From Spirochaetia bacterium (GTDB lineage: Bacteria; Patescibacteriota; Microgenomatia; UBA1400; MFAQ01), in assembly GCA_035477615.1 (NCBI GenBank), contig DATIKJ010000051.1, positions 1,009 to 65,008 of the forward strand: 64,000 nt of DNA, given 5' to 3'. Below, piece after piece: positions 5,948 through 26,857 of this stretch (positions are counted from its first letter, which is position 1; each line of letters starts with the position of its first letter). The notes under the pieces were generated by a model. That model saw only the letters and a program-made list of their open reading frames with translations. It searched no databases and had not been told where the DNA came from. Made by a program: the position numbers and the translations under genes.

Positions 5948-6928
5948 CTATTTGTGCTCTTCCAAATATTTCTCCGCATCCAGCGCTGCCTGACAACCCA
6001 TTCCTGCGGCTGTAATCGCTTGTCTATATCTATAATCCACCACGTCTCCACAGCCAAAAACCCCTTCTACCGAAGTCATTGTTGGAAACCCATCTTTCCA
6101 CATATCCTTTTCACTCACTCTCCATTTTGTATCCGTCATTAAAGCCGTCATTGTTGTTCGTAGATATCCTTTTTCATCAAGTTCCAACTTTCCTTCAAAA
6201 AGTTTCGTCGTTGGCACATGACCAATCGCCACAAACAAACCATCTGCGTCATATTCTGTCACTTCCCCAGACTTTACATTCTTAACCTTAATTGTCGTCA
6301 GTTTTGTCTCACCCGATACTCCGATCACCTCACTACTCCACAACACTTTTATTTTGGAATTTGCCAACACTCTATCTTGCATTATTTTGCTTGCCCTAAA
6401 CTCATCTCTCCTGTGGATGATTGTTACTTCATCAGCAAACTTCGCCAAAGCCATCGCATCCTCCATCGCTGCATCTCCTCCACCAACAACAAAGGTTTTT
6501 TTACCTTTGAAAAAAGCAGCATCGCATACTGCACAAGTACTTACTCCTCGACCAACATAAGCTTCTTCCTCTATCCCAATCATCTGTGATGTCGCTCCGG
6601 TTGAAACTACAACAGCCCTTGCCTCATAAACGGTTTCCCCAACCCAAACTTTTTTTATCTCCCCGGTCAGATCCACTCTACTAACTTCGGAATAAATTAC
6701 TTCCGTTCCAAACCTTTTTGCCTGTTTTTCCATTGTCATCATCAAGTCCGGTCCCATGATCCCCTCAGAAAATCCGGGAAAGTTCTCCACCTCGCTAGTA
6801 TTCATCAACTGACCTCCAGGGTTAACTCCTGTCAAGACCAAAACCGACAAAGTCGCTCTTCCCAAATATATTGCCGCAGTATACCCACTCGGCCCGCCGC
6901 CAATTACAAGAACATCGTACTTCTTCAT
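5948..6928 (-). CDS. trxB: Thioredoxin-disulfide reductase
   Basis: 326 aa; FAD GxGxxG (VIGGGPSG), redox-active CAVC, NADPH-binding GGGDAA motif. Confidence 0.9.
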   Translation of the reverse strand: MKKYDVLVIGGGPSGYTAAIYLGRATLSVLVLTGVNPGGQLMNTSEVENFPGFSEGIMGPDLMMTMEKQAKRFGTEVIYSEVSRVDLTGEIKKVWVGETVYEARAVVVSTGATSQMIGIEEEAYVGRGVSTCAVCDAAFFKGKKTFVVGGGDAAMEDAMALAKFADEVTIIHRRDEFRASKIMQDRVLANSKIKVLWSSEVIGVSGETKLTTIKVKNVKSGEVTEYDADGLFVAIGHVPTTKLFEGKLELDEKGYLRTTMTALMTDTKWRVSEKDMWKDGFPTMTSVEGVFGCGDVVDYRYRQAITAAGMGCQAALDAEKYLEEHK

Positions 6929-8470: not shown

Positions 8471-10276
8471 ATGACCAAGTTTTTTACCAACATCAAAGAA
8501 TTTTCCCAAACATACTCTTCCACAGTCAAAATCGCTTGGGAAACAGATCGTTCTGTTTTTCTCAAAATATCCCTTGCCAACGCCTTAAATGGTGCTCTTG
8601 TCTACCCAAGTCTTTTAATTGCCAAACTTCTCATAGACTCAGTCATGATCTCCATTACCACTCATGATATCTCCACTGGTATGAAAGGTATGATTATCGC
8701 CGCTATTTTGGGTCTTCTAGTTGACAGAGTACAACAAATACTTCAAGAAATTGATAATGTCTACAGCGGCCAACTTTCCAATCTAATTTCCGAAAAAATC
8801 CAAGTATCCATATCAAGAAAATTAAACTTATTACCTGTATCTACCGCCGAAGACCCAAACACCAGAAACATTCTCCAAAAGGTTATCGACAATGCTGGCC
8901 GTTCTGTCTGGTCACTTATTATTCCTATCTCCACCCTTCCCGAACTCCTTCTTACTATCATCTCTACCGCAATTCCAATTATTACCTTCCAACCTCTGAT
9001 TATCATTCCTAGTATTATTCTTGCTATTCCCAACATTATCATCGGTGTCGGTCATTCTAAAGCCCAACACGCTCTCTCCACCGAGTTCTCTCCCAAATGG
9101 CGTGTCTGGAGTGCTTTAGAAGACTTTGCCACAAAGGGGCGTTTCTTATATGAAAACAAAATTCTAAGTCATGTCGAGATTCTTCTCAGTCGCCGTTTCA
9201 AACTTGCCAAAGAAATATTCGGTCGTCGCCAAAAACTTGGTGCAAATTTTGCCAAAAAACGCCAAATTGCTTCTCTTCCTCTCTCTGTATTTGAAACCGG
9301 CACTAAACTCTATCTCTATTACTTAGCTATTACTCAGACACTTACTCTTGGTACCGCTCAAATAACAAGCAACGCCATCAACCAATTTATCTCAAGTATC
9401 AGTCGTCTAATAAGACAAGCCAACGACATCTTTCAAAACTATCTTTTCATTAATGACTATGAAACATTTATGGCTCTTCCAGAAGAAAACCAAACCAAAG
9501 GTATCCACTTCCCCGATAAAATCAATCAAGGCATTGAGTTTCAGCACGTCTATTTCAAATACCCCAAATCAAAAAACTGGATATTAAATGATGTCTCTTT
9601 CAAAATAGATCCCGCCGACAATCTTGCTATCGTTGGCCAAAACGGCGCTGGTAAAACTACCCTTATCAAACTTCTTTGTCGTTTTTACGAACCCCAAAAA
9701 GGAATAATCTTAATCAATGGTAAAAACATTAATGATTACAACATCAAAGAATACCGTTTTAAATTCTCTGCTCTTTTTCAAGACTTTGCCCAGTATCCTT
9801 TTTCTGTCGAAGATAATATTCGCTTTGGTGATATCTCTCAAAAAAGAAGTCTCCGTAAAATAAAACAAGCCGCCATGCTCACCGGCATCACCAACTTCAT
9901 AGAAATGCTTCCATTAAAATACCAGAATCCTCTAGATAAAGAATTTAAGGATGGCGTTGAACCATCAAAAGGTCTGTGGCAAAGAGTGGCATTAGCTCGC
10001 ATCCTTTACCGTCCTTCAGAATTTCTTATCCTCGATGAACCAACTTCCAACGTCGACCCTCAATCTGAAGAAGAAATTTTTGAACAAGTTCTAAAAATCG
10101 CCAAAGAAAAAATTATTTTCCTTGTATCTCATCGCTTCTCCACCGTAAGAAAAGCCGATAAAATCTTAGTTCTCGAACACGGCACCGTCGTCGAACACGG
10201 CACACACCATGAACTAATGGCCAAAAATGGTCGTTACAAAGAATTATTTGATATTCAAGCCGAGAGTTTCCGCTAG
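8471..10276 (+). CDS. ABC exporter, fused permease-ATPase, with degenerate signature motif
   Basis: 601 aa; N-terminal TMD, Walker A GQNGAGKTT, Walker B LILDEPTS, H-loop SHR; signature LSGGQ replaced by PSKGLWQ. Confidence 0.85.
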   Translation: MTKFFTNIKEFSQTYSSTVKIAWETDRSVFLKISLANALNGALVYPSLLIAKLLIDSVMISITTHDISTGMKGMIIAAILGLLVDRVQQILQEIDNVYSGQLSNLISEKIQVSISRKLNLLPVSTAEDPNTRNILQKVIDNAGRSVWSLIIPISTLPELLLTIISTAIPIITFQPLIIIPSIILAIPNIIIGVGHSKAQHALSTEFSPKWRVWSALEDFATKGRFLYENKILSHVEILLSRRFKLAKEIFGRRQKLGANFAKKRQIASLPLSVFETGTKLYLYYLAITQTLTLGTAQITSNAINQFISSISRLIRQANDIFQNYLFINDYETFMALPEENQTKGIHFPDKINQGIEFQHVYFKYPKSKNWILNDVSFKIDPADNLAIVGQNGAGKTTLIKLLCRFYEPQKGIILINGKNINDYNIKEYRFKFSALFQDFAQYPFSVEDNIRFGDISQKRSLRKIKQAAMLTGITNFIEMLPLKYQNPLDKEFKDGVEPSKGLWQRVALARILYRPSEFLILDEPTSNVDPQSEEEIFEQVLKIAKEKIIFLVSHRFSTVRKADKILVLEHGTVVEHGTHHELMAKNGRYKELFDIQAESFR

Positions 10277-10793: not shown

Positions 10794-11660
10794 ATGAATA
10801 AAGAACCGTTTTTCTCCATTGTCATTCCTTGCCTAAACGAGGAAAAATCTCTGCCCTTGCTACTCAAAGACCTATCCAATCAAACTCTCCAAGACTTCGA
10901 AGTTGTTGTTATCGATGGCCACTCCAAAGACAAAACGGTTGAAAAAGCCAACTCCTTTAATAAAAAACTACCTTTTCTTTCCATTCACACAAGCAAAATC
11001 CGCAATGTTTCAGTTCAAAGAAACATGGGTGGAGAAAAAGCTCGTGGAAAATTTTTACTATTCAATGACGCCGACAACCGCCTCCCTAAACACTTTCTTG
11101 AAGGAGTTAAATACCACATAAGTGTCAAACCATCCGATATGTTTACCACCTGGTGCCTTCCCGACTCAAACCGTAGATCTGATAAAGTAATTGCAACCAA
11201 CCTTAACCTCCTTACCGAAACTGGTTTTCTTCTCGGAAATCCCGGAGCTCTTGGCGCTATGATTGGTTGTCGTCGAAAGATATTTGGCAAAATTGGTGGT
11301 TTTAATCCTGAAATTTCTTTTGCTGAAGATACTGAATTTATCAGACAAGGATATCGTAAGGGTTACTCTTTTTCTATCATTCATGAACCTCGCTATGTGT
11401 ATTCTTTAAGACGTTTTCGAAAAATTGGCACTCTTAAGCTTCTCCAAAAATATGCAGTTCTCCATCTAAAAATAATGACAGATCAAAAAATCGATCAAAA
11501 AAAAGAGTATCCCATGGGAGGCAGTTATCTCAAAAAAGCCAAAACTACTTCAGATTTCTTCAAAAATCTCCAGTCTGTCTTTATCAAAAAAGCCCCAAAA
11601 AAGAAAATATACGACCAACTCAAAGCCCTCCTTAGTCTAGAAGAAAGTAAGCCTAGTTAA
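10794..11660 (+). CDS. Family 2 glycosyltransferase
   Basis: 288 aa; FSIVIPCLNEE, DGHSKD, NDADN (DxD) motifs. Confidence 0.8.
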   Translation: MNKEPFFSIVIPCLNEEKSLPLLLKDLSNQTLQDFEVVVIDGHSKDKTVEKANSFNKKLPFLSIHTSKIRNVSVQRNMGGEKARGKFLLFNDADNRLPKHFLEGVKYHISVKPSDMFTTWCLPDSNRRSDKVIATNLNLLTETGFLLGNPGALGAMIGCRRKIFGKIGGFNPEISFAEDTEFIRQGYRKGYSFSIIHEPRYVYSLRRFRKIGTLKLLQKYAVLHLKIMTDQKIDQKKEYPMGGSYLKKAKTTSDFFKNLQSVFIKKAPKKKIYDQLKALLSLEESKPS

Positions 11661-12592
11661 GCAAACATAAACTGTAGCCCGATAAACATTAAATAAAAAC
11701 CAACCAATACAACTCCCTCCCATCTTTCCAGTTTTCGTTTTGACTTTGTAAAAAGCCAAAACAGACCTAAAATAATTACCAAAAACATTCCTGACAGACC
11801 TCGCTGCAATGACTCATGCATTACTATCGGAGTTATCAACGCTACCACTCCCAAAATCACTGTTGAGTTAATCACTACACTTCCCAGTAAATCAGGTAAA
11901 ACCAAACTCGCTCTATGCTTCTTACGAGAAAATGAAAGCAATAACAACTCTGGTAACGTAGTTCCGAAAGCAATCAGTATCAAACCCATCCAAAACCAAC
12001 TCACTCCCCACACTGCTGCAACTCCAACAGCAATTTGTACCAACTGCCAAGAACAAACAGACATAATAATTATCCCTAAAACTAACATAACTACCAAACC
12101 CCACCTTTCATGACTATTTATTTTCTTCTTTGATGATTTAATTACCATCTTTTCATTTGACAAATAGAAAGCATAAATAAAATACAACACTACCAAAATT
12201 CCACCTTCAATCCTCGAAATTACACCATCAAACAACATAGCAAACGGCATTAAAGAAATACCAACTGTCACCCACAAATCTCTTTTTAAATACTCTCCCA
12301 CAATCGGTATCACCGAAGCCAAAATCGCCAAACCTCCAATAATCAAACTCAAATTTGCCATACTGGCTCCCACTACCATCCCCAAAGCCATCTGTGGTTT
12401 TCCGTCCAAAGCTGCCGCAATTCCTACAAAAAGTTCTGGTAAGGCCAACGAAAAACCAACCAAAATCGAAATCACCCTATTTTTTTTGAATGGTAAATGA
12501 GAAACAAACCTTTCAAAAACATCCACCACCACTCCGGAAGACAAAACAATCAAAATCAAGAGTATCAATCCAACAAAAATATTCCAAACCAT
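11657..12592 (-). CDS. Ca2+/cation antiporter (CaCA/YrbG family)
   Basis: 311 aa; two alpha-repeats (LPELFVGIAA..., TTLPELLLL...GSVVINS). Confidence 0.75.
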   Translation of the reverse strand: MVWNIFVGLILLILIVLSSGVVVDVFERFVSHLPFKKNRVISILVGFSLALPELFVGIAAALDGKPQMALGMVVGASMANLSLIIGGLAILASVIPIVGEYLKRDLWVTVGISLMPFAMLFDGVISRIEGGILVVLYFIYAFYLSNEKMVIKSSKKKINSHERWGLVVMLVLGIIIMSVCSWQLVQIAVGVAAVWGVSWFWMGLILIAFGTTLPELLLLSFSRKKHRASLVLPDLLGSVVINSTVILGVVALITPIVMHESLQRGLSGMFLVIILGLFWLFTKSKRKLERWEGVVLVGFYLMFIGLQFMFA

Positions 12593-12658
12593 AATTTATT
12601 CTAACATCGATTAATTTTAAATAGTTTAAAAAGATAAATTAAGATATACTTCTTTCAT

Positions 12659-13303
12659 ATGGATCAAATTCTTCAAAGTATACTTGATATGGTCAAAACA
12701 CATGGCTCTCTTGCCATGTTAGTCGGTGGAATCACCGAACAAATAATTGTCCCCATCCCCTCACCAATTATCTCTATGTCTGGTGGAGCTTTTTTGATTT
12801 CCCCCAATAATCATTTTTTCCAATCTTTATTAGATATCATTCTCAAAGTTTCCCTTCCATACTCAATTGGAGCTGTACTAGGAACCAGTCTGATTTTCCT
12901 AATTGCCTTTTTTGGAGGACAACCAATAATTGACAAGTTTGGAAAATATGTCGGTATAAAATGGTCGCTTATAGAAAAAATTAAGGCAGATTTTAAAAAG
13001 ACCATATCAGACGAGTTATTTATTCTTATAGCAATTTCAATTCCTGTTGTTCCTGTTTCACTTATAACTGCTTTTTGTGGTGGTTTTCGAATAAAACCAA
13101 TTAAATTTTATCCTCTAGCTTTTTTAGCCCTAATAATTCGCTCTACCATACTAGGATTTCTTGGTTTCAAGATGGGAGAAGCTTTTACCGAGATAGCAAA
13201 CGGACTAGATAAAATTGAAAGTATCTTAACTGTCGTTATTGCTGTTCTGGTTCTTGGTTTCCTTTTTCTTCAAAGAGAAAAATGGCTCAAGAAGAACAGT
13301 TAG
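12659..13303 (+). CDS. DedA/VTT-domain-like membrane protein
   Basis: 214 aa, about 5 TM helices; VPIPSPI motif region resembling DedA/SNARE-associated family. Confidence 0.5.
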   Translation: MDQILQSILDMVKTHGSLAMLVGGITEQIIVPIPSPIISMSGGAFLISPNNHFFQSLLDIILKVSLPYSIGAVLGTSLIFLIAFFGGQPIIDKFGKYVGIKWSLIEKIKADFKKTISDELFILIAISIPVVPVSLITAFCGGFRIKPIKFYPLAFLALIIRSTILGFLGFKMGEAFTEIANGLDKIESILTVVIAVLVLGFLFLQREKWLKKNS

Positions 13304-15002
13304 ATATCTTCGCTATCTCTTCAACCTCTTTCCAGGTTGTCGATTGATCAGCTCTCTTATCCTCACGGAATCGAACTAGACGAGGAAAGCGCAAAGCTAT
13401 TCCCCCAGCATGTACATTACTAATAGTTATTTCATCTGCTGCCACTTCCACCACCACCCTAGGTTCTACCCAAACATCTGCCAAAAGTGTCCCTTCAACC
13501 AAATAATTTTTTGGTTTTTCTTTTAACTCTATCCCATCAAGTTTCTTTCTCAAACTCCTAAACTCATCATCAGTCAATCCTGTACCAATCTTAGCCAAAC
13601 TAACCCAAGACTCGCCTTTTTTTAGTCCCACCAAAAAAGCCCCAATTCCAAAACCAACTCTTTTTCCTCTTCCGTAGTAATATCCTAAAATCACCAAATC
13701 CAAAGTATCCGACAATTTACCCGATGTTCCCTCCACTTCTTTTATTTTTACCCAGTTCCATCCTTGTCTTCCTGGCAAATATCTACCATCCCACACTTTT
13801 AACACTGCTCCCTCAAAACCCTCACTCAAATATTTCTCATGTAATTTCTTTACCTCATCTGGATTACTAGTTCTCACAAACTCATCAACCACTATCGTCT
13901 CGTTAGACTTAACTACGTTTTCCAGTATTTCTCTTCTCTCAAAATATGGTTTATCTATCAAACTCTCACCATTTTTACTCAAAATATCAAACAGAAAAAA
14001 TCTCATCGGCACCAACTCCGCTGCATCGGCAATATTATGTTTTCGTTTTCGTGTCATTGTCATCTGAAAAGGTAACACTTTCCCTGTCTTTCTTTCATAC
14101 CCTGCCGCCTCACAATCCATGATCACTTCATCTGCTTCAATCCATTTACCCATTTCCATAAGCTCAGGAAACATCCAACTATTTTCTTCCAAATTTCTTG
14201 TATATGTTTTAATTTCATTCTTTAATCTATTAAAGTGAATCTGCAATCGTGTTCCGTCATACTTTCTCTCCACTGCCACATCCTTCATCTTATCTACAAT
14301 CTCTCCGTATTCATTTAGTCTCTGACATAAAGCCGGCACAACCGGCACCCCCACTTCCACCTTAATATCTCTCAAACCAGTCATCCCTTTTTCCTTAAAC
14401 ATTTTTGTTATCAGTCCCGGATCAGGATAAATCTGGAATACGGAGTCCAACTCTTTTCTCAAAGTCTTATTTCCGTTTTCTATCTGTGATAATGCATCAA
14501 AAACTGTCTTTGCAGAAAATCCCAAACGCAGTCTTCCAACAACCATTCTAGAAATATACTTTCTCTCTAAAGCACTCACTTCTAGTAAAATCTCTGATAA
14601 TTTGTTTACTTTTCTATCTTGACTTCCCAGACCCCCATCCTCAGCAATCAAAAGTAAATAATCATAGACCTCTATTAAACTATGATTTTCCCTCTTTTCA
14701 TTTTGAAAAGGTAGCTTTTCAAGCAATACTCCCAAATCTCCAATTTTTTTATAATCATTCATCACCTCTTCAGTTGATATTCCAGCACCTTGAGAAATTG
14801 CCCTAATAACCATCTTAACCGCCATTCCAAATTCCTTATTAGCAAAGTCAGGTCCTAGTTGTCCCAATACCAGATAGATTCCTTTATTTATTTCAGCTGT
14901 ATTCATTTTTTCGATCAGCTCCGCCAACACATCAGTAATGGCCAATCTCGAAGATATCTTTTCCAATTTTTCTAGATACTCGGCAAATTCCTTAAACAGC
15001 AT
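13287..15002 (-). CDS. ATP-dependent DNA ligase (archaeal/eukaryotic-type Lig)
   Basis: Motif I KYDGTRLQI, motif IV EGAVLK, motif V/VI WVKIK; N-terminal DNA-binding domain; start set at MLFKEF (15002); the ORF track extends to 15206 through a GC-rich structured region. Confidence 0.85.
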   Translation of the reverse strand: MLFKEFAEYLEKLEKISSRLAITDVLAELIEKMNTAEINKGIYLVLGQLGPDFANKEFGMAVKMVIRAISQGAGISTEEVMNDYKKIGDLGVLLEKLPFQNEKRENHSLIEVYDYLLLIAEDGGLGSQDRKVNKLSEILLEVSALERKYISRMVVGRLRLGFSAKTVFDALSQIENGNKTLRKELDSVFQIYPDPGLITKMFKEKGMTGLRDIKVEVGVPVVPALCQRLNEYGEIVDKMKDVAVERKYDGTRLQIHFNRLKNEIKTYTRNLEENSWMFPELMEMGKWIEADEVIMDCEAAGYERKTGKVLPFQMTMTRKRKHNIADAAELVPMRFFLFDILSKNGESLIDKPYFERREILENVVKSNETIVVDEFVRTSNPDEVKKLHEKYLSEGFEGAVLKVWDGRYLPGRQGWNWVKIKEVEGTSGKLSDTLDLVILGYYYGRGKRVGFGIGAFLVGLKKGESWVSLAKIGTGLTDDEFRSLRKKLDGIELKEKPKNYLVEGTLLADVWVEPRVVVEVAADEITISNVHAGGIALRFPRLVRFREDKRADQSTTWKEVEEIAKISNCSS

Positions 15003-15268
15003 ACTCACATTGTAACTCACACAAATCGGTATAAATACTTGATTCCAGAAATTAGATTTTTTCTCTTTCCGTTTGGCGTTTAGTATTTTTGACAATGAGT
15101 CGCAGTCCATCGTTTTCTTGACATTCAGGCTACTGCCCGCGACGCTACGCGATGAGCGGCTAGAGTCAAGAAAACAGGAATCGACGGTCACCGAAGGTGA
15201 CGTCACAAAATAATAAATGACAAAAGAGGAAAAGAGAAATAATCAATATCTTCCATAAAAGTACTACT

Positions 15269-16369
15269 TTATTTAAATCCCTTCACCCTCCCCAGCACAT
15301 ACACCGCTCCTTTTGTTTTTCCCTTCTTCCTTAGTAGTTTTTTTAAAATCAAATCTTTAATATCGCGCAAAATAGTATCATCAGAAACCATTGGCAGTAT
15401 TCCTCTAATCTCTTTAATTGTCATTTCCCCCTGAATTGTCATCTCTTCCATAATTGTAATTTCTCTTTCTGAAAGAGAAATTACTTTGCCCACTTCAGAC
15501 TTAAATACTGGTCGGTCACCAACTAAATTCATTATTTTTACTCTTGTCTTTTCTGCCGATTCCGATAAGGTTTTTGTAAAATACTCCAACCATCCAGTTA
15601 AATCTTCACTATCCACTGTCTGAGAAAATATTTCTCCAAATCTCGATTTATTTTTTAACAAATCTTCTTCAAAAGGCCACATCTCCTTCATTCCATAACC
15701 ATCGTTAGCCATAGTCAAACTTGAAAAAAATAAGCTTGCGCTCAGGTTATTTTCTTCAAAAGGTCTTATTCTCATAATCTCAAATAATACTATCCCCGCC
15801 TTAATCACTGAATGAATATCCGATTTTGAAACACTCTTAAACCATGAAAACAAATCTTCCATCTGATAACTCACCTCAATTGGTGCTGGAGACTTAATTT
15901 CTGGATATTCTAGACTGTCTTTTCCCCGATACTCCCCAAGAGAGTTTGAACACACAACTCGCTCACCTAAAAGAGAATTTATTGTCTTCAAATCTTTCTC
16001 TCCAAATATCTCTTGTTTAAACTTTTTGGTTAAATAGGCAGTTTGACTCACCAAACGATACGAATTCAGCCAGTTAATTGCTTTCTGAACATCTTTTTCT
16101 TTGGCTACTACTCCAATTCGAAGAGCTACCTGTGTTGGTTTATCGTCCCTTCCAGGATCATCTTTCACAATCTTCGATATATCATCAATATCAAGTTGAC
16201 AATCCAAATAGTGCAACACACTGTAAGCTCTTTTAGAAAGACACTCTAATTTAATTTTTGTCTCCCAATCAACTTGCAATGGCGCCAAATCAGCCACCAA
16301 TACCGCTTTTTCAAGCTCAATTAAGTTGTTTACTATTCTGTTAGAAAATATAAATTGAGGACTAAACAC
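15269..16369 (-). CDS. Fic-fold protein with degenerate active-site motif (pseudo-Fic) and C-terminal winged-helix
   Basis: 366 aa; IKAGIVLFEIMRIRPFEENNLSASLFFSSL aligns to Fic core (..AGI.HF.F..IHPFxDGNGRxxRLL) but HPFxDGNGR is RPFEENNLS; C-terminal wHTH-like segment (EMTIKEIRGILP...ILRDIKDL). Confidence 0.55.
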   Translation of the reverse strand: MFSPQFIFSNRIVNNLIELEKAVLVADLAPLQVDWETKIKLECLSKRAYSVLHYLDCQLDIDDISKIVKDDPGRDDKPTQVALRIGVVAKEKDVQKAINWLNSYRLVSQTAYLTKKFKQEIFGEKDLKTINSLLGERVVCSNSLGEYRGKDSLEYPEIKSPAPIEVSYQMEDLFSWFKSVSKSDIHSVIKAGIVLFEIMRIRPFEENNLSASLFFSSLTMANDGYGMKEMWPFEEDLLKNKSRFGEIFSQTVDSEDLTGWLEYFTKTLSESAEKTRVKIMNLVGDRPVFKSEVGKVISLSEREITIMEEMTIQGEMTIKEIRGILPMVSDDTILRDIKDLILKKLLRKKGKTKGAVYVLGRVKGFK

Positions 16370-16398
16370 ATCATTATTTTCGCATCATTTGCGGAAAA

Positions 16399-17280
16399 TC
16401 ACAACTTCTTCATCAAACTTCCATATATTTCAGGCACAATCTCTACCAAATCATCAGCATTAAACATAAAACCTCGAGTCTCTGCCAATCTCTCAGCTGC
16501 CTTTTTAATAAGTAAGGTGGCCGCACTCACCGAAAACAGTCGCTCATTTTTTGCCATCAACCCTACGGTTAATCCAGCAATTATGTCTCCTATTCCTCCT
16601 TTTACTAATCCGCTATTTCCTCCTTCAATCGACCAGGTTTCTTTTCCATCACTCGCTATCGATATCGTATCCTTAGTTAAAATTACTAACTCATACTTCT
16701 TCGCAAAATTATAGATTTGTTTGCATCTTTCTTCGATATCCTCTTTTAACTTTTCTCCAAACATCATCTCAAATTCTTTTCCGTTTGGCGTTACTACCGC
16801 ACCTTTTGGAATATCCGTCACCTCCACCACTTGCAAAGTTCCTCCGTCAATCACCCAATTTTTATCAGGATATTTTTCAAATAACTCCACACTCATTTTT
16901 CGTGTTTCGTTTCCTTCTGTATCACAAGCAAATCCTTGTTCTTTTGAATGACTTCTCATTAATCCTGGTCCGATAAGTATCGCGTCAGACTTAGCTACAT
17001 AGCTATCTAATTCATTTCTATCTACCCAAATAAAACTTGATAGTCCTGCCTTAATTTTTTCTGCCACCCCTTTATCTTCAATTGGGCTGGAAAAATAAGT
17101 CATACTTACCATTCTTGATGCCGCCTTCAACGCCAATATTGGTGCTCCATGAAACAATTTGCTTCCACCAATTATCGTAACCTGCCCCATCGAGTACTTA
17201 TCCCCAACATCTTTAAACGTTTTACTCTCGGCAAATTTTGTTTCATCAAATTTCTTCAATTCCATACACTGAGTATACAA
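16399..17280 (-). CDS. NAD(P)H-hydrate dehydratase (Nnr/YjeF C-terminal domain, carbohydrate-kinase fold)
   Basis: 293 aa; IIGGSKLFHGAPILA, GPGL, VIDGG, GGNSGLVKGGIGD motifs. Confidence 0.8.
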   Translation of the reverse strand: MYTQCMELKKFDETKFAESKTFKDVGDKYSMGQVTIIGGSKLFHGAPILALKAASRMVSMTYFSSPIEDKGVAEKIKAGLSSFIWVDRNELDSYVAKSDAILIGPGLMRSHSKEQGFACDTEGNETRKMSVELFEKYPDKNWVIDGGTLQVVEVTDIPKGAVVTPNGKEFEMMFGEKLKEDIEERCKQIYNFAKKYELVILTKDTISIASDGKETWSIEGGNSGLVKGGIGDIIAGLTVGLMAKNERLFSVSAATLLIKKAAERLAETRGFMFNADDLVEIVPEIYGSLMKKL

Positions 17281-17296
17281 GTGATAAACTCAAATT

Positions 17297-17566
17297 ATGA
17301 AGAAACTTAAGAAAAAGCCAGTTAGTAAACTCTCCCAAGAAATTGCCATTCAAACTCTTACACTTGTTTCTTCTGCCCTCGGTCTTGTAGCAGCTCTAGC
17401 CTGGAACGAAGCCATCACTGAATACATCAATATTTACATCAAACCACACCTTGCCAAAGGCTCAGGAGTTATCTCTCTTTTTATCTATGCCATCTTTATT
17501 ACTGCTATTACCGTAATGGTTGCCCTCCAAATGGCTAAGATTAAAAAGAGGTTGGGACCTAAGTAA
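17297..17566 (+). CDS. Small membrane protein (2 TM), unknown
   Basis: 89 aa, Lys-rich N-terminus and two hydrophobic helices; fits intergenic gap exactly. Confidence 0.45.
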   Translation: MKKLKKKPVSKLSQEIAIQTLTLVSSALGLVAALAWNEAITEYINIYIKPHLAKGSGVISLFIYAIFITAITVMVALQMAKIKKRLGPK

Positions 17567-18611
17567 GCTTAACAATCTCTGCTTTTTTAAACATTAAAAT
17601 ATCCTCCCGGTCCGCAGTTGTCACCACTACTTGTCTACCCTCCATCACTCTAAGCACTTCCTGCTTGTGTACCTCATCTAGTTCAGAAAATATATCATCC
17701 AGTAGTAAAGTTGCTTTTTTCTTTCCCCTTTCCTCCAGAAAATATATCTCTCCCATTTTGAGGGCCAACACTGCCATTCTTTGTTCTCCCCTTGAACCAT
17801 AAGTCAGTAAATCTCTTGTCCCTTCTTTAATTACCAAATCATCTTTATGTGGACCAACCAGGGTATAGCCCACTGCCACCTCAGCCTCTGCATACTGACT
17901 CAGTCTTCCTTCACTGATTACACTTACGTCATAAATAATTTTTAGACTCTTAAACAACTCGCTTTTTTCAAATAATCCATTAATAAAATCCACCAACTCC
18001 CGTCTTTTGTCCTGAACTACCTGTCCATGCTTTATCAAAAGTCCATCCCAAAATGTTAGGGAATATCTACTCGCTGTCCCATCTCTTACTGCATCTAATA
18101 TTTTATTTCTTCTTCTTAGAGCTTGTTCATAAGTACTCAAACTTTGTTCATACTCCCTATCCACTTGAATCATTAATCTATCCAAAAATTTCCGTCTCAC
18201 ATCAGGCGATCCGCTTATAAGCTCTATATCCTCAGGTCGAAATAATACCAATGGTAAAAAACCTAAAATATCTTTTCGTCGTCTCGACACTCCATCCACT
18301 AGATACTTTCTTTTATTAACTACCTTTCCCATTACCATTCCTCCGTTTACTACCACCTCCAAAGTCATTGTATCTTTCTTTGACAAAGTAACCTCACCTG
18401 ATACTCGTCCCAGCTCTTGCTCAAAACGCACCATTTCTTCTGTTCTTTTTGCTCTAAAACTTTCTCCCACTCCCAGTAAATAAATCGCTTCCAACAAATT
18501 TGTCTTTCCTTTGGCGTTCTCTCCGGCAATCACCGTCACTCCACTAGAAAACTTAATCGATTTATTTTCGTAGTTTCTAAAATCAGATAATGTAATGCTC
18601 GTCAGTCCCAC
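17559..18611 (-). CDS. recF: DNA replication and repair protein RecF
   Basis: 350 aa; Walker A GENAKGKTNLLEA at N-terminus, SMC-like signature and Walker B LLLDDIFSELD at C-terminus. Confidence 0.9.
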   Translation of the reverse strand: MGLTSITLSDFRNYENKSIKFSSGVTVIAGENAKGKTNLLEAIYLLGVGESFRAKRTEEMVRFEQELGRVSGEVTLSKKDTMTLEVVVNGGMVMGKVVNKRKYLVDGVSRRRKDILGFLPLVLFRPEDIELISGSPDVRRKFLDRLMIQVDREYEQSLSTYEQALRRRNKILDAVRDGTASRYSLTFWDGLLIKHGQVVQDKRRELVDFINGLFEKSELFKSLKIIYDVSVISEGRLSQYAEAEVAVGYTLVGPHKDDLVIKEGTRDLLTYGSRGEQRMAVLALKMGEIYFLEERGKKKATLLLDDIFSELDEVHKQEVLRVMEGRQVVVTTADREDILMFKKAEIVKLT

Positions 18612-18731
18612 GTCTATATTCTAGCATCGTAATTAAGTGAACAAAGTGAATGAATTACGAGCGAATATAAGAGGAAGCGCAGGAATAACATTTCCATAAT
18701 GAATATTATGGAAAGGGTGACGAGCAAGCTC

Positions 18732-19580
18732 TTATATTTGACAATTTTGACAAAAGAATGTTCCTCGTCCCCCTATCTTCATTTTTTTGAAGATTCCACC
18801 ACACTTCCTACACTTCTGTCCATCTTTCTTATAAACCAAGAAATGATCTTGATATGTACCACCCAAACCATTTGTATCTACATAGTTGGCTGCACTTGCT
18901 CCACCATATTTAAGACCTTTGCTTATGACTTCCCTTATTGAAGCCAGCAAATTTATCACTTCTTGATGGCTCAAACTACTTGCTTTCCGATTTGGCATCA
19001 CTTTAGCCAAGTAAAGAGCATCATTAGCATAAATATTTCCTACTCCTCCAATTTTTTCTTGATCCATTAACACCAGTTTTACCGCTTTTCCTGATTTGCT
19101 TAATACCTTTGTAACATACTCCAAAGAAAATTCTTTTTCTGTCACATCTGGTGCTGTTTTCCTAATTTCTTTTTCATATTTTTTCTTTTCGACCATTCTC
19201 ATCCACCCAAACACTCTCATGTCATTAAAAAATAACTTCGAACCGTCAGTAAAATCTATTACCACCCTGGTATGTTTACTTGGCAAATCCTTAACCCAAT
19301 CCGCTGTTGGATGACCGCCCACAACTCGTCTTTCTTTATCCACAAACACCAACTGTCCTGTCATCTTTAGATGGACAATCACTATCTTCTCCTTGCCTTT
19401 GAAATAAATCTCAATTATTTTAGATTTTCTATCAATCTTTTCCACCTCCCCCCCAATCAATTCTTTTGCCTCACCTCCAAAACTTTTTTCTCGAAGCACC
19501 TCAACCCTATCTAATATCTTTCCAACCAACACCTCATTAAGCTGTCGCCTAATTGTCTCTACTTCTGGTAACTCAGGCAT
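18732..19580 (-). CDS. mutM: Formamidopyrimidine-DNA glycosylase
   Basis: 282 aa; N-terminal MPELPEVE catalytic Pro2/Glu3, H2TH region, C-terminal zinc finger CRKCG...CQNC. Confidence 0.9.
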   Translation of the reverse strand: MPELPEVETIRRQLNEVLVGKILDRVEVLREKSFGGEAKELIGGEVEKIDRKSKIIEIYFKGKEKIVIVHLKMTGQLVFVDKERRVVGGHPTADWVKDLPSKHTRVVIDFTDGSKLFFNDMRVFGWMRMVEKKKYEKEIRKTAPDVTEKEFSLEYVTKVLSKSGKAVKLVLMDQEKIGGVGNIYANDALYLAKVMPNRKASSLSHQEVINLLASIREVISKGLKYGGASAANYVDTNGLGGTYQDHFLVYKKDGQKCRKCGGIFKKMKIGGRGTFFCQNCQI

Positions 19581-20706
19581 TTACTTTAGCAACTTCATTT
19601 CGAATATTTTTCACAAATTTTTCTTTTGAAAACATTCTCGCTCTATTAACTAGTTTTTCCCTGCTCCATTTGATTTTTTCAAATCTTTTCATCGCCATTT
19701 CCAATGTCTTCACATCAGTACCATCAACAAATACTCCTGTCTCTCCATCAACTACCGACTCTTTAAAACCACCCCCATTAAAAGCTATCACCGGTGTCCC
19801 CGATGCCATTGACTCTACAACTGTCATTCCAAAATCCTCCTCCTTTGCCAAAGCAATAAAACCTTTAGCCTGTGCATATAACATTTTTAATACACTATCC
19901 TCAACCCTACCTAATATCTCCACCCCAGCAATTTTTCTTAACTGTTTTTCAACTTGAGAAAAACCAACCGCCTCTCCCACAATCTTCAAAGAAAATCCCA
20001 AATGGTGTGCTGCTTTGGCTGCTTCCACAATTCCCTTCGCTCCCACCAACCGAGATACTATCAAAAAATAATCCTCTTTTTTTACTGCCTTGCTTGACTT
20101 GATCATTTTTTCTACCTCCACTGGAGGATAAACCACTGTTGATTCCTTCCGATAGTACTTCCACACTCTCTGCTGCACATTTTTTGAATTCACTAACCAC
20201 TTATCTATCATCTCAGAAGACCACAAATCAAAAATTCTTAGATAATGATTTACCACTGTTGCGTACACTCGCACTATCCAGTACTTCATCAGGTTCACAC
20301 TCATTTCATATCCATACAAAAACCTTGGTGGTGTATGACAGTAAGCCACCACTTTTGTCTTAGGAGATACCTTAAAACCACGAGCAAAATACGAAGAGCA
20401 TGAAGTAATCACCAAGTCATAGGAAGATAGGTCTAGCGATCTCCAAATTAACGGTACCAAAAATCTCAAGGGGCTATAAAAGTTTCCTCTTTTAATCAGC
20501 CAGCCATACTTACTCTCAATTATCTTTCTATCTGAAAACTTTTTATCACAACTTGATCCTTTTACTCTAAAAGCTGTATATATTGGCGCTTCAGGATACA
20601 TATCAGCCAGTACCCGTAGTACTCTTTCGGCTCCCCCAAACTCTTTTATAAAGTCATGTACTAAAGCAATTTTCATAAAAATATTTCTTCTGTTTCCTTT
20701 TCCCAA
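19573..20706 (-). CDS. Family 4 (GT-B) glycosyltransferase
   Basis: 377 aa; EDFGMTVVESMASGTPVIA retaining-GT4 C-terminal signature. Confidence 0.8.
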   Translation of the reverse strand: MGKGNRRNIFMKIALVHDFIKEFGGAERVLRVLADMYPEAPIYTAFRVKGSSCDKKFSDRKIIESKYGWLIKRGNFYSPLRFLVPLIWRSLDLSSYDLVITSCSSYFARGFKVSPKTKVVAYCHTPPRFLYGYEMSVNLMKYWIVRVYATVVNHYLRIFDLWSSEMIDKWLVNSKNVQQRVWKYYRKESTVVYPPVEVEKMIKSSKAVKKEDYFLIVSRLVGAKGIVEAAKAAHHLGFSLKIVGEAVGFSQVEKQLRKIAGVEILGRVEDSVLKMLYAQAKGFIALAKEEDFGMTVVESMASGTPVIAFNGGGFKESVVDGETGVFVDGTDVKTLEMAMKRFEKIKWSREKLVNRARMFSKEKFVKNIRNEVAKVNA

Positions 20707-23810: not shown

Positions 23811-24902
<1,092 letters not shown>

Positions 24903-26783: not shown

Positions 26784-26857
26784 TGGGCCGACCAGGATTC
26801 GAACCTGGGACATCGAAGGTATAAGCTTCGCGCTCTAACCAGCTGAGCTATCGGCCC
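26784..26857 (-). tRNA. tRNA-Ile with UAU anticodon
   Basis: Minus strand GGGCCGA-TA-GCTC-AGCTGGTTA-GAGC-G-CGAAG-CTTATAC-CTTCG-ATGTC-CCAGG-TTCGAAT-CCTGG-TCGGCCC-A; D-arm identical in style to bacterial tRNA-Ile; anticodon positions 34-36 = TAT. Confidence 0.8.

Follow-up and report, generated by a model that had tools for sequence, protein, structure and literature searches.

By far the most Fic proteins belong to class II, whose roles in the cell are for the most part unknown (PMC9755527). Two of the described members, CccR and SoFic, are Fic proteins with a winged helix-turn-helix (wHTH) that act as autorepressors. CccR of Yersinia pseudotuberculosis (PDB 7XUX) represses its own promoter by way of palindromes near the -35 and -10 boxes, and this repression needs the helix-turn-helix (HTH) and dimerization but not the catalytic His192, as the H192A mutant still represses (PMC9755527). 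SoFic of Shewanella oneidensis binds the DNA of its own promoter (bioRxiv 10.64898/2026.07.09.737422), and the wHTH of CbFic2 from Coxiella burnetii (PDB 8CIL) binds double-stranded DNA, which induces dimerization (PMC10628234). Dead Fic domains are also already known, in the secreted effectors BepC, Bep8, and AvrB; BepC of Bartonella works through its binding to GEF-H1, and no enzymatic activity was detected for it (PMC8401265, PMC4454073), and in Bep8, one Gly position carries a side chain that keeps the triphosphate from binding (PMC8401265). Here, we analyze a gene in a 64-kb window (64,000 nucleotides of contig DATIKJ010000051.1, assembly GCA_035477615.1) that encodes a Fic protein with a degenerate catalytic motif and a C-terminal wHTH, hereafter called pseudo-Fic. 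We consider it fairly probable that pseudo-Fic is a naturally catalysis-dead class-II Fic-wHTH protein that acts as an autorepressor of the operon it forms with a DNA ligase gene.

A Fic Fold Followed by a C-Terminal wHTH

A first-pass annotation of this gene, made from the nucleotide letters alone, had proposed a Fic fold with a wHTH tail, and the profile and structure searches recovered both. Pfam PF02661 (Fic) matched above its curated cut-off (28.2 bits vs 24, E 3.5e-6), the best PADLOC match was the SoFic model (residues 121-358, E 3.7e-15), and a phmmer search against the PDB sequences placed residues 159-357 on Coxiella CbFic2 (8cil, E 2.5e-5), pairing "irpfeennlsa" with "lhpfddgngri". 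The AlphaFold model, built from an alignment of 39 family sequences (pLDDT 86.3, pTM 0.74), has the all-helical Fic core. In Foldseek, it matched the class-II Fic-wHTH structures 8cil, 4rgl, 7xux, 7cb8, and 3eqx/3zcn over the whole length (E 8e-12 to 1e-7), with 8cil at E 8e-12 and a TM score of 0.65, and the probability was 1.0 for 8cil, 4rgl, 7xux, 7cb8, 3eqx, and FICD. The alignments to 8cil, 7xux, and 3eqx include their HTH.

The C-terminal 70 residues of the model form three helices (301-313, 318-324, and 330-342) and two wing strands (346-349 and 356-359), with VSDDTILRDIKDL as the recognition helix and KKGKTKGAVYVL as the basic wing. The pI of this segment is 9.8, and its matches to HTH sequence profiles are weak. 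The wHTH (VSDDTILRDLKDL..KKLIRKKGKTKGAVYVL) is the best-conserved segment of the protein. Furthermore, the N-terminus MF.P is common to every homolog in the alignment, and the GTG start is therefore reliable. These results confirm that the gene encodes a class-II-type Fic protein with a C-terminal wHTH.

How does pseudo-Fic compare with the described systems? CbFic2, its best match in both sequence and structure, has the same parts, namely an N-terminal helical part with an inhibitory helix, a Fic core, and a wHTH. However, CbFic2 has intact HPFDDGNGRIGR and TSAIEG motifs and is a bifunctional AMPylase/deAMPylase acting on histone H3, its DNA binding is apparently nonspecific, and it has no ligase linkage. 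Similarly, CccR has a class-II Fic core followed by a C-terminal HTH (Foldseek rank 4, E 4e-9), but at ~13% identity, it is active, AMPylating FtsZ, and is secreted as a type VI secretion system (T6SS) effector, its half-sites lie far apart, and it has no ligase linkage. Compared with CccR, pseudo-Fic lacks the motif, the inhibitory Glu, and the flap. SoFic (PDB 3EQX/3ZCN), the source of the best PADLOC model, has the same domain order as pseudo-Fic; however, it is active, AMPylates EF-Tu, and is a listed defense gene, whereas the pseudo-Fic genes are chromosomally fixed and their catalytic machinery is dead. BepC and Bep8 of Bartonella and AvrB of Pseudomonas resemble pseudo-Fic in having a Fic fold whose signature motif is degenerate or missing (PMC8401265, PMC4454073), but they are secreted, host-targeting effectors of FIC-OB-BID or other architectures, without a wHTH, an autoregulatory DNA site, or housekeeping synteny. 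The intact orthologs from other Patescibacteria (e.g., P0120, L026-L033, and L036-L080), on the other hand, occupy the same slot before the ligase and share the length, the wHTH (SDDTILRDL...KKGKTKGA), and often the same promoter palindrome, differing from pseudo-Fic in that they have kept HPF[IVT][DE]GNGR, a flap of full length, and the inhibitory helix with GTHxEGN.

Loss of the Catalytic Loop and the Inhibitory Glu, and a Shortened Flap

The segment IKAGIVLFEIMRIRPFEENNLSASLFFSSL, which the first-pass annotation had aligned to the Fic core, is present, and pseudo-Fic lacks the signature of catalytically competent Fic proteins, HxFx(D/E)GN(G/K)R. As had been claimed, the His, both Gly residues, and the Arg are replaced (His to Arg, Gly to Asn, Gly to Leu, and Arg to Ser); the Pro, the Phe, the D/E position, and the central Asn are kept. 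A search of 5.8 billion proteins returned 422 relatives, of which those with names are Candidatus Collierbacteria, a Candidate Phyla Radiation lineage (CPR; Patescibacteria), and the loop pattern was scored in the best 120 of the 422 (37-100% identity). The pattern R-I-x-P-F-x-x-x-N-[LVF]-x-[ST] was found in 119 of these 120 homologs, with the former His position varying freely among R, K, S, C, N, Q, T, G, A, I, L, V, and W. The lone exception, P0120, which is also the most distant homolog of this set, has the intact motif HPFIEGNGRVAR. The degenerate loop is common to orthologs down to ~39% identity, and intact HPFIEGNGR is limited to the sister clade, at ~40% identity.

Could the loss reflect a sequencing error or a decaying pseudogene? 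Taken alone, the missing motif would speak for this. However, a sequencing error or a recent pseudogenization is ruled out because orthologs down to such low identity share the degenerate loop, and the length of 366 residues is kept across ~100 homologs with no frameshifts. In unsaturated pairs, the pairwise ratio of nonsynonymous to synonymous substitution (dN/dS, or omega) was 0.02-0.09 overall; the core gave 0.03-0.12, and both the wHTH and the N-terminal part gave 0.01-0.03. The intact relatives fall in the same range (0.016-0.10). The helical scaffold and the wHTH are under strong purifying selection, and pseudo-Fic is therefore a maintained pseudoenzyme, not a pseudogene; an error or a decaying gene is extremely improbable.

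Two other parts have been lost in coordination with the loop. Active relatives carry GTH[VLI]EGN at the inhibitory helix; in the degenerate family, the pattern is x-F-x-G-N-x-L, and the inhibitory Glu is gone. The helix itself is still predicted (residues 33-54), but it reads SVLHYLDCQL where intact relatives have GTHVEGN, and the (S/T)xxxE(G/N) motif is absent. Pseudo-Fic descends from class II and yet, with its inhibitory Glu replaced, falls outside the definition of that class. The flap is ~6 residues shorter than in intact relatives in the alignment, and nearly all of it is deleted in L017 and L019. The pseudo-Fic model has no strands at residues 135-162 and no flap beta-hairpin; as a control, the intact sister P0120, modeled with the same pipeline, showed a short hairpin (EE--EE at residues 156-161) with low local pLDDT. 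We also considered whether the catalytic loop is shortened in the model, and this was rejected, as the helix-loop-helix spacing around the motif is equal in the pseudo-Fic and P0120 models.

In the degenerate family, both Gly positions of the anion hole are now occupied by residues with side chains (Asn or Asp, and Leu), which should block the triphosphate site, because this is what the established Fic structures and the case of Bep8 indicate (PMC8401265). From the missing anion hole, pseudo-Fic is probably unable to bind or use ATP.

Could the scaffold instead support other chemistry through other residues, as an enzyme with a "migrated" active site? The clade has many polar positions that never vary (R74, D75, E91, Q95, E136, R148, E165, H186, E197, R200, N208, E234, E235, and E262), and it is known that Fic motifs have diversified toward other activities (PMC8401265; PMC4454073). 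However, these residues look structural because most of them are also kept in intact relatives. The freedom of the former His position, the decay of independent lineages to different loop sequences, and the replacement of both anion-hole Gly residues speak against such an enzyme as well, and we consider it very unlikely.

Recurrent Loss of Catalysis

To compare the lineages, one genome per GTDB species was scanned, which gave 143 relatives with 80 loci kept, and six more loci were obtained through exact-protein look-ups. P0215/L085 (wHTH "VSTMTAFRDL", near UvrC) was left out as a member of a more distant family. In the tree of the Fic protein, the query grouped with L001-L025, L034, and L035, next to the intact sister clade L026-L033. 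The ligase served as an independent marker (200 bootstraps). In the ligase tree, the main degenerate clade was recovered with 99.5% bootstrap support, and the Collierbacteria-type total group, which joins the degenerate lineage and its intact sister, with 95.5%. The degenerate loci L035 and L081 fell outside this total group, and L035 was the sister of the intact L050 (99.5%). Furthermore, the loops have decayed to differing sequences (NNL.., KPFVYGNRQ, YPFRTKSNV, and IPFETFNRT). These results support at least three independent losses of catalysis, as read from the sequences, with the wHTH remaining nearly invariant; the placement of L086 and L034 is tentative.

An exhaustive HMMER search of 1.84 billion representatives revealed many further degenerate clusters. 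One of them consists of proteins of ~325 residues with the loop x-I-x-P-F-E-x-x-N and the wHTH ISEDSVLRDLK...GSTKSSRYEL. Look-ups of two members, L081 and L083, placed both in the same RecF-Fic-ligase slot. At L081, an additional open reading frame (ORF) of 189 residues without a Pfam match (5998-6567) lies between pseudo-Fic and the ligase.

An Operator-Like Palindrome in the Putative Promoter

In front of pseudo-Fic, we assigned by eye a putative sigma-70-like promoter (Table 1). With 6 nt separating the -10 box GAAAAT from the GTG codon, the mRNA would have no leader or almost none. The same layout is found in relatives (e.g., TTGAGA-17-GATAAT), and the 29-bp spacer between NnrD and Fic is nearly invariant across the degenerate clade, TTTTCCGCAnnnnnTGCGA(A/T)AATAAT, even where the proteins are ~40% identical.

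The promoter spacer contains the operator-like palindrome CCGCA-N5-TGCG, which is perfect (CCGCA-N5-TGCGG) in some lineages. With up to 2 mismatches allowed, its 19-nt pattern matches the 64-kb window once, and across the 86 loci (~0.9 Mb), 38 of the 39 exact CCGCANNNNNTGCG matches lie just upstream of the Fic start. The palindrome was found 10-15 nt before the start codon in 27 of the 33 degenerate loci, with two further near-matches, and in 17 intact loci. Pseudo-Fic has two features of the Fic-wHTH autoregulator type, a palindromic site in its own promoter and a C-terminal wHTH after the Fic core.

Two other roles were considered for this palindrome. An intrinsic terminator was rejected because neither strand has a T-run after the palindrome, and an RNA hairpin is unsupported because changes in one half-site (TGCG to TGCA or AGCG) are not compensated. 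In some lineages, a "direct-repeat" variant (TGCGG-N5-8-TGCG) was picked up by a loose regular expression over 120 nt, and this variant was not relied on.

A Fic-Ligase Operon Across Patescibacteria

The order glycosyltransferase-MutM-RecF-(DUF5654, opposite strand)-NnrD-Fic-ATP-dependent ligase-...-Na/Ca exchanger is common to the degenerate and the intact lineages, so pseudo-Fic is the positional ortholog of an active enzyme. The neighbors in the window were confirmed with Pfam, and those named in the first-pass annotation are correct, with the ATP-dependent ligase lying downstream and the NAD(P)HX dehydratase (NnrD) upstream. Fic is directly upstream of the ligase on the same strand in 78 of 87 loci. 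The gap between the two genes has a median of 31 bp, and several pairs overlap by 4 bp. The nine exceptions include five contig ends and one inversion in which the genes are still adjacent, and the pair reaches Saccharibacteria and Paceibacterota. These results indicate that the Fic-ligase link is a deeply conserved operon across Patescibacteria and not a chance adjacency; the NnrD link is a local synteny feature only. A consensus scan found no terminator between the genes. In the literature searched, no paper links Fic to an ATP-dependent ligase or to CPR biology.

Could pseudo-Fic be a noncatalytic partner of the ligase, with the wHTH providing general DNA binding and the scaffold binding or positioning the ligase (or RecF/MutM) on DNA? 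The adjacency of the two genes from Microgenomates to Saccharibacteria, often with a gap of 0-20 bp or a 4-bp overlap, would fit such a role, as would the purifying selection on the whole Fic scaffold beyond the wHTH and the binding of random DNA by CbFic2 at nanomolar affinity (PMC10628234). However, the flap, which is the usual protein-binding element of Fic proteins, is the very part that is shortened, and the gene-specific promoter palindrome would be left unexplained. We regard a role as ligase partner as doubtful, and it could coexist with that of a regulator.

The genomic setting also bears on the non-enzymatic role suggested in the first-pass annotation, which was that of a DNA-binding regulator or of a decoy or antitoxin-like binder. 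The regulator part has gained circumstantial support from the promoter palindrome and the CccR and SoFic precedents; the decoy or antitoxin-like part gains nothing because the gene lacks a toxin partner and keeps a fixed chromosomal synteny. Similarly, pseudo-Fic might be a remnant or decoy of a SoFic-type anti-phage defense system or of a toxin-antitoxin module, given that the SoFic defense model is the best PADLOC match and that Fic proteins are often toxins. However, the gene holds a fixed position in a housekeeping DNA-repair block across a phylum. No small antitoxin or toxin ORF adjoins it, as its neighbors are NnrD and the ligase, so the arrangement is not that of class I FicTA, and the 64-kb window contains no intact Fic motif elsewhere. 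The strong purifying selection and near single-copy behavior are also unlike those of mobile defense genes, and such an origin appears highly unlikely.

Table 1. Coordinates of pseudo-Fic, its parts, its putative control elements, and its neighbors in the window
Feature	Position	Strand	Details and evidence
Pseudo-Fic-wHTH coding sequence	15269..16369	-	366 aa, GTG start; ORF list, Pfam Fic, model, Foldseek, dN/dS
C-terminal winged helix-turn-helix	15290..15481	-	aa 297-360; model secondary structure, weak HTH profile matches, conservation
Degenerate catalytic loop RPFEENNLS in place of HPFx(D/E)GNGR	15740..15766	-	aa 202-210
Flap region	15881..15943	-	aa 143-163; alignment, model
Inhibitory-helix remnant KRAYSVLHYLDCQL	16193..16234	-	aa 46-59; alignments, site-wise loss of T52, E55, G56, N57
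Putative promoter	16376..16404	-	-35 TTGTGA 16399-16404 (includes NnrD stop), 17-nt spacer, -10 GAAAAT 16376-16381
Operator-like palindrome CCGCA-N5-TGCG	16381..16394	-	In promoter spacer, overlaps -10 box, 11 nt before start codon
Three-domain ATP-dependent DNA ligase	13287..15002	-	Pfam DNA_ligase_A_N, _M, _C; downstream partner
NAD(P)HX dehydratase (NnrD)	16399..17280	-	Pfam Carb_kinase E 2.4e-28; upstream neighbor in Collierbacteria-type loci

The ligase entry of the ORF list (639 aa, from GTG 15206) is over-extended, because the homologs and the conserved N-terminus MLFKEF... point to ATG 15002 as the true start (571 aa). Between this ATG and the pseudo-Fic stop lies a 266-nt insert (15003-15268, minus strand), where most relatives have 8-36 nt. 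It contains GC-rich hairpins, and the 263-nt stretch 15006-15268 folded with a minimum free energy of -74 kcal/mol (z -4.0 vs shuffled sequences). The insert is 83% identical to the matching gap of L004, despite saturated synonymous sites between the two genomes, and L004 has a second copy at 9713-9910. Rfam gave no match for the insert and nothing in the Fic region. The insert looks like a small dispersed repeat or a structured element.

On the other side of NnrD, a gene for a small DUF5654 membrane protein (17297-17566, plus strand) lies between RecF and NnrD, with its 3' end overlapping that of RecF (17559-17566), and this arrangement is kept in many Microgenomates loci. L038 and L041, which are separate contigs of one Beckwithbacteria metagenome-assembled genome (MAG; JAZDKF01), each carry an intact Fic-ligase pair; either the module is truly duplicated there, or the bin mixes two strains.

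The nine genes examined at 11657-20706 lie mostly on the minus strand. The GC skew of the window is strongly negative throughout (-0.2 to -0.48 in each 2-kb bin) and the cumulative skew is monotonic; because there is no skew switch, the window holds no origin or terminus. The only Rfam matches in the window are two tRNA genes on the minus strand (24829-24902 and 26784-26857). In NCBI, the identical protein is filed under "Spirochaetia bacterium", and the titles of many related MAG contigs read "uncultured Pseudomonadales" or "Gammaproteobacteria". These source labels look wrong, or the bins contaminated, because the gene content and all named relatives are those of Collierbacteria/Microgenomates (CPR).

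Discussion

How might a Fic protein without catalysis act? We favor autorepression because CccR and SoFic bind their own promoters and the catalytic-His mutant of CccR still represses; by analogy with these proteins, we infer that pseudo-Fic dimerizes, binds the palindrome, and represses. The ancestor would have been an AMP-transferase, active and under inhibition by the Glu, whose C-terminal wHTH also bound DNA; throughout Patescibacteria, its gene would have stood directly upstream of that for the ATP-dependent DNA ligase. The Collierbacteria lineage lost the catalytic loop (the His, both anion-hole Gly residues, and both Arg residues), the inhibitory Glu, and the target-docking flap. A pseudo-Fic dimer would place its two wHTH domains on CCGCA-N5-TGCG, and because this palindrome lies in the spacer of its own putative promoter and overlaps the -10 box, its occupancy would repress the Fic-ligase operon, in a negative autoregulation like that of CccR. 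Pseudo-Fic may thus be a natural "H192A-like" derivative that has shed AMPylation. Because the whole scaffold is still constrained, it may have remained a platform for dimerization and possibly a ligand sensor or a partner-binding module.

Several observations weigh against autorepression. The putative promoter of the window agrees with the consensus at only 8 of 12 positions and was therefore not called by the consensus scan; relatives with GATAAT reach 9 of 12. About 20 loci with an intact motif have no recognizable element within 120 nt of the start, though their wHTH is equally conserved; in several of them, Fic abuts the upstream gene, and the promoter may lie elsewhere. Where one half-site has changed (TGCG to TGCA), the other half shows no matching change, and the palindrome could be the site of a different transcription factor. 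The loci of the GTDB-species scan were fished with wHTH peptides, which inflates the wHTH conservation there, but the same conservation was seen in the HMMER set, which was not obtained in this way and is unbiased. Finally, the 280-residue Fic scaffold is strongly constrained (core omega 0.03-0.12), and a pure transcription factor would not obviously need it.

A broader possibility, which we put forward tentatively and think unlikely, is that the Fic-wHTH protein and the ligase form a dedicated module, ancient in Patescibacteria, in which the ligase would be controlled transcriptionally through the palindrome and, where the motif is intact, also post-translationally. The post-translational arm could consist of the (de)AMPylation of the ligase or of another DNA-bound protein, or of the processing of adenylated ligation intermediates. 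If such a module exists, the repeated death of the catalytic site would mark DNA binding and regulation as its indispensable core, and the family would represent a natural hybrid of enzyme and transcription factor that is resolving into a pure regulator.

Four aspects of these results appear to be new: a large, chromosomally fixed family of catalysis-dead Fic-wHTH proteins in CPR, which are ultra-small bacteria; the repeated, independent loss of catalysis in one ortholog; a conserved putative operator; and a Fic-ligase operon that is conserved across Patescibacteria and undescribed in the literature searched. The pseudo-Fic family provides a natural separation of function, in which catalysis was dropped at least three times and the wHTH, the scaffold, the genomic slot, and the promoter palindrome have been kept. 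Because catalysis was repeatedly lost and the wHTH and the palindrome were retained, this pattern argues that DNA binding and regulation are a primary, selectable function of Fic-wHTH proteins. Furthermore, matched pairs of active and dead orthologs are available for biochemistry, and the Fic-ligase operon offers a handle on the control of the ATP-dependent DNA ligase in minimal-genome bacteria.

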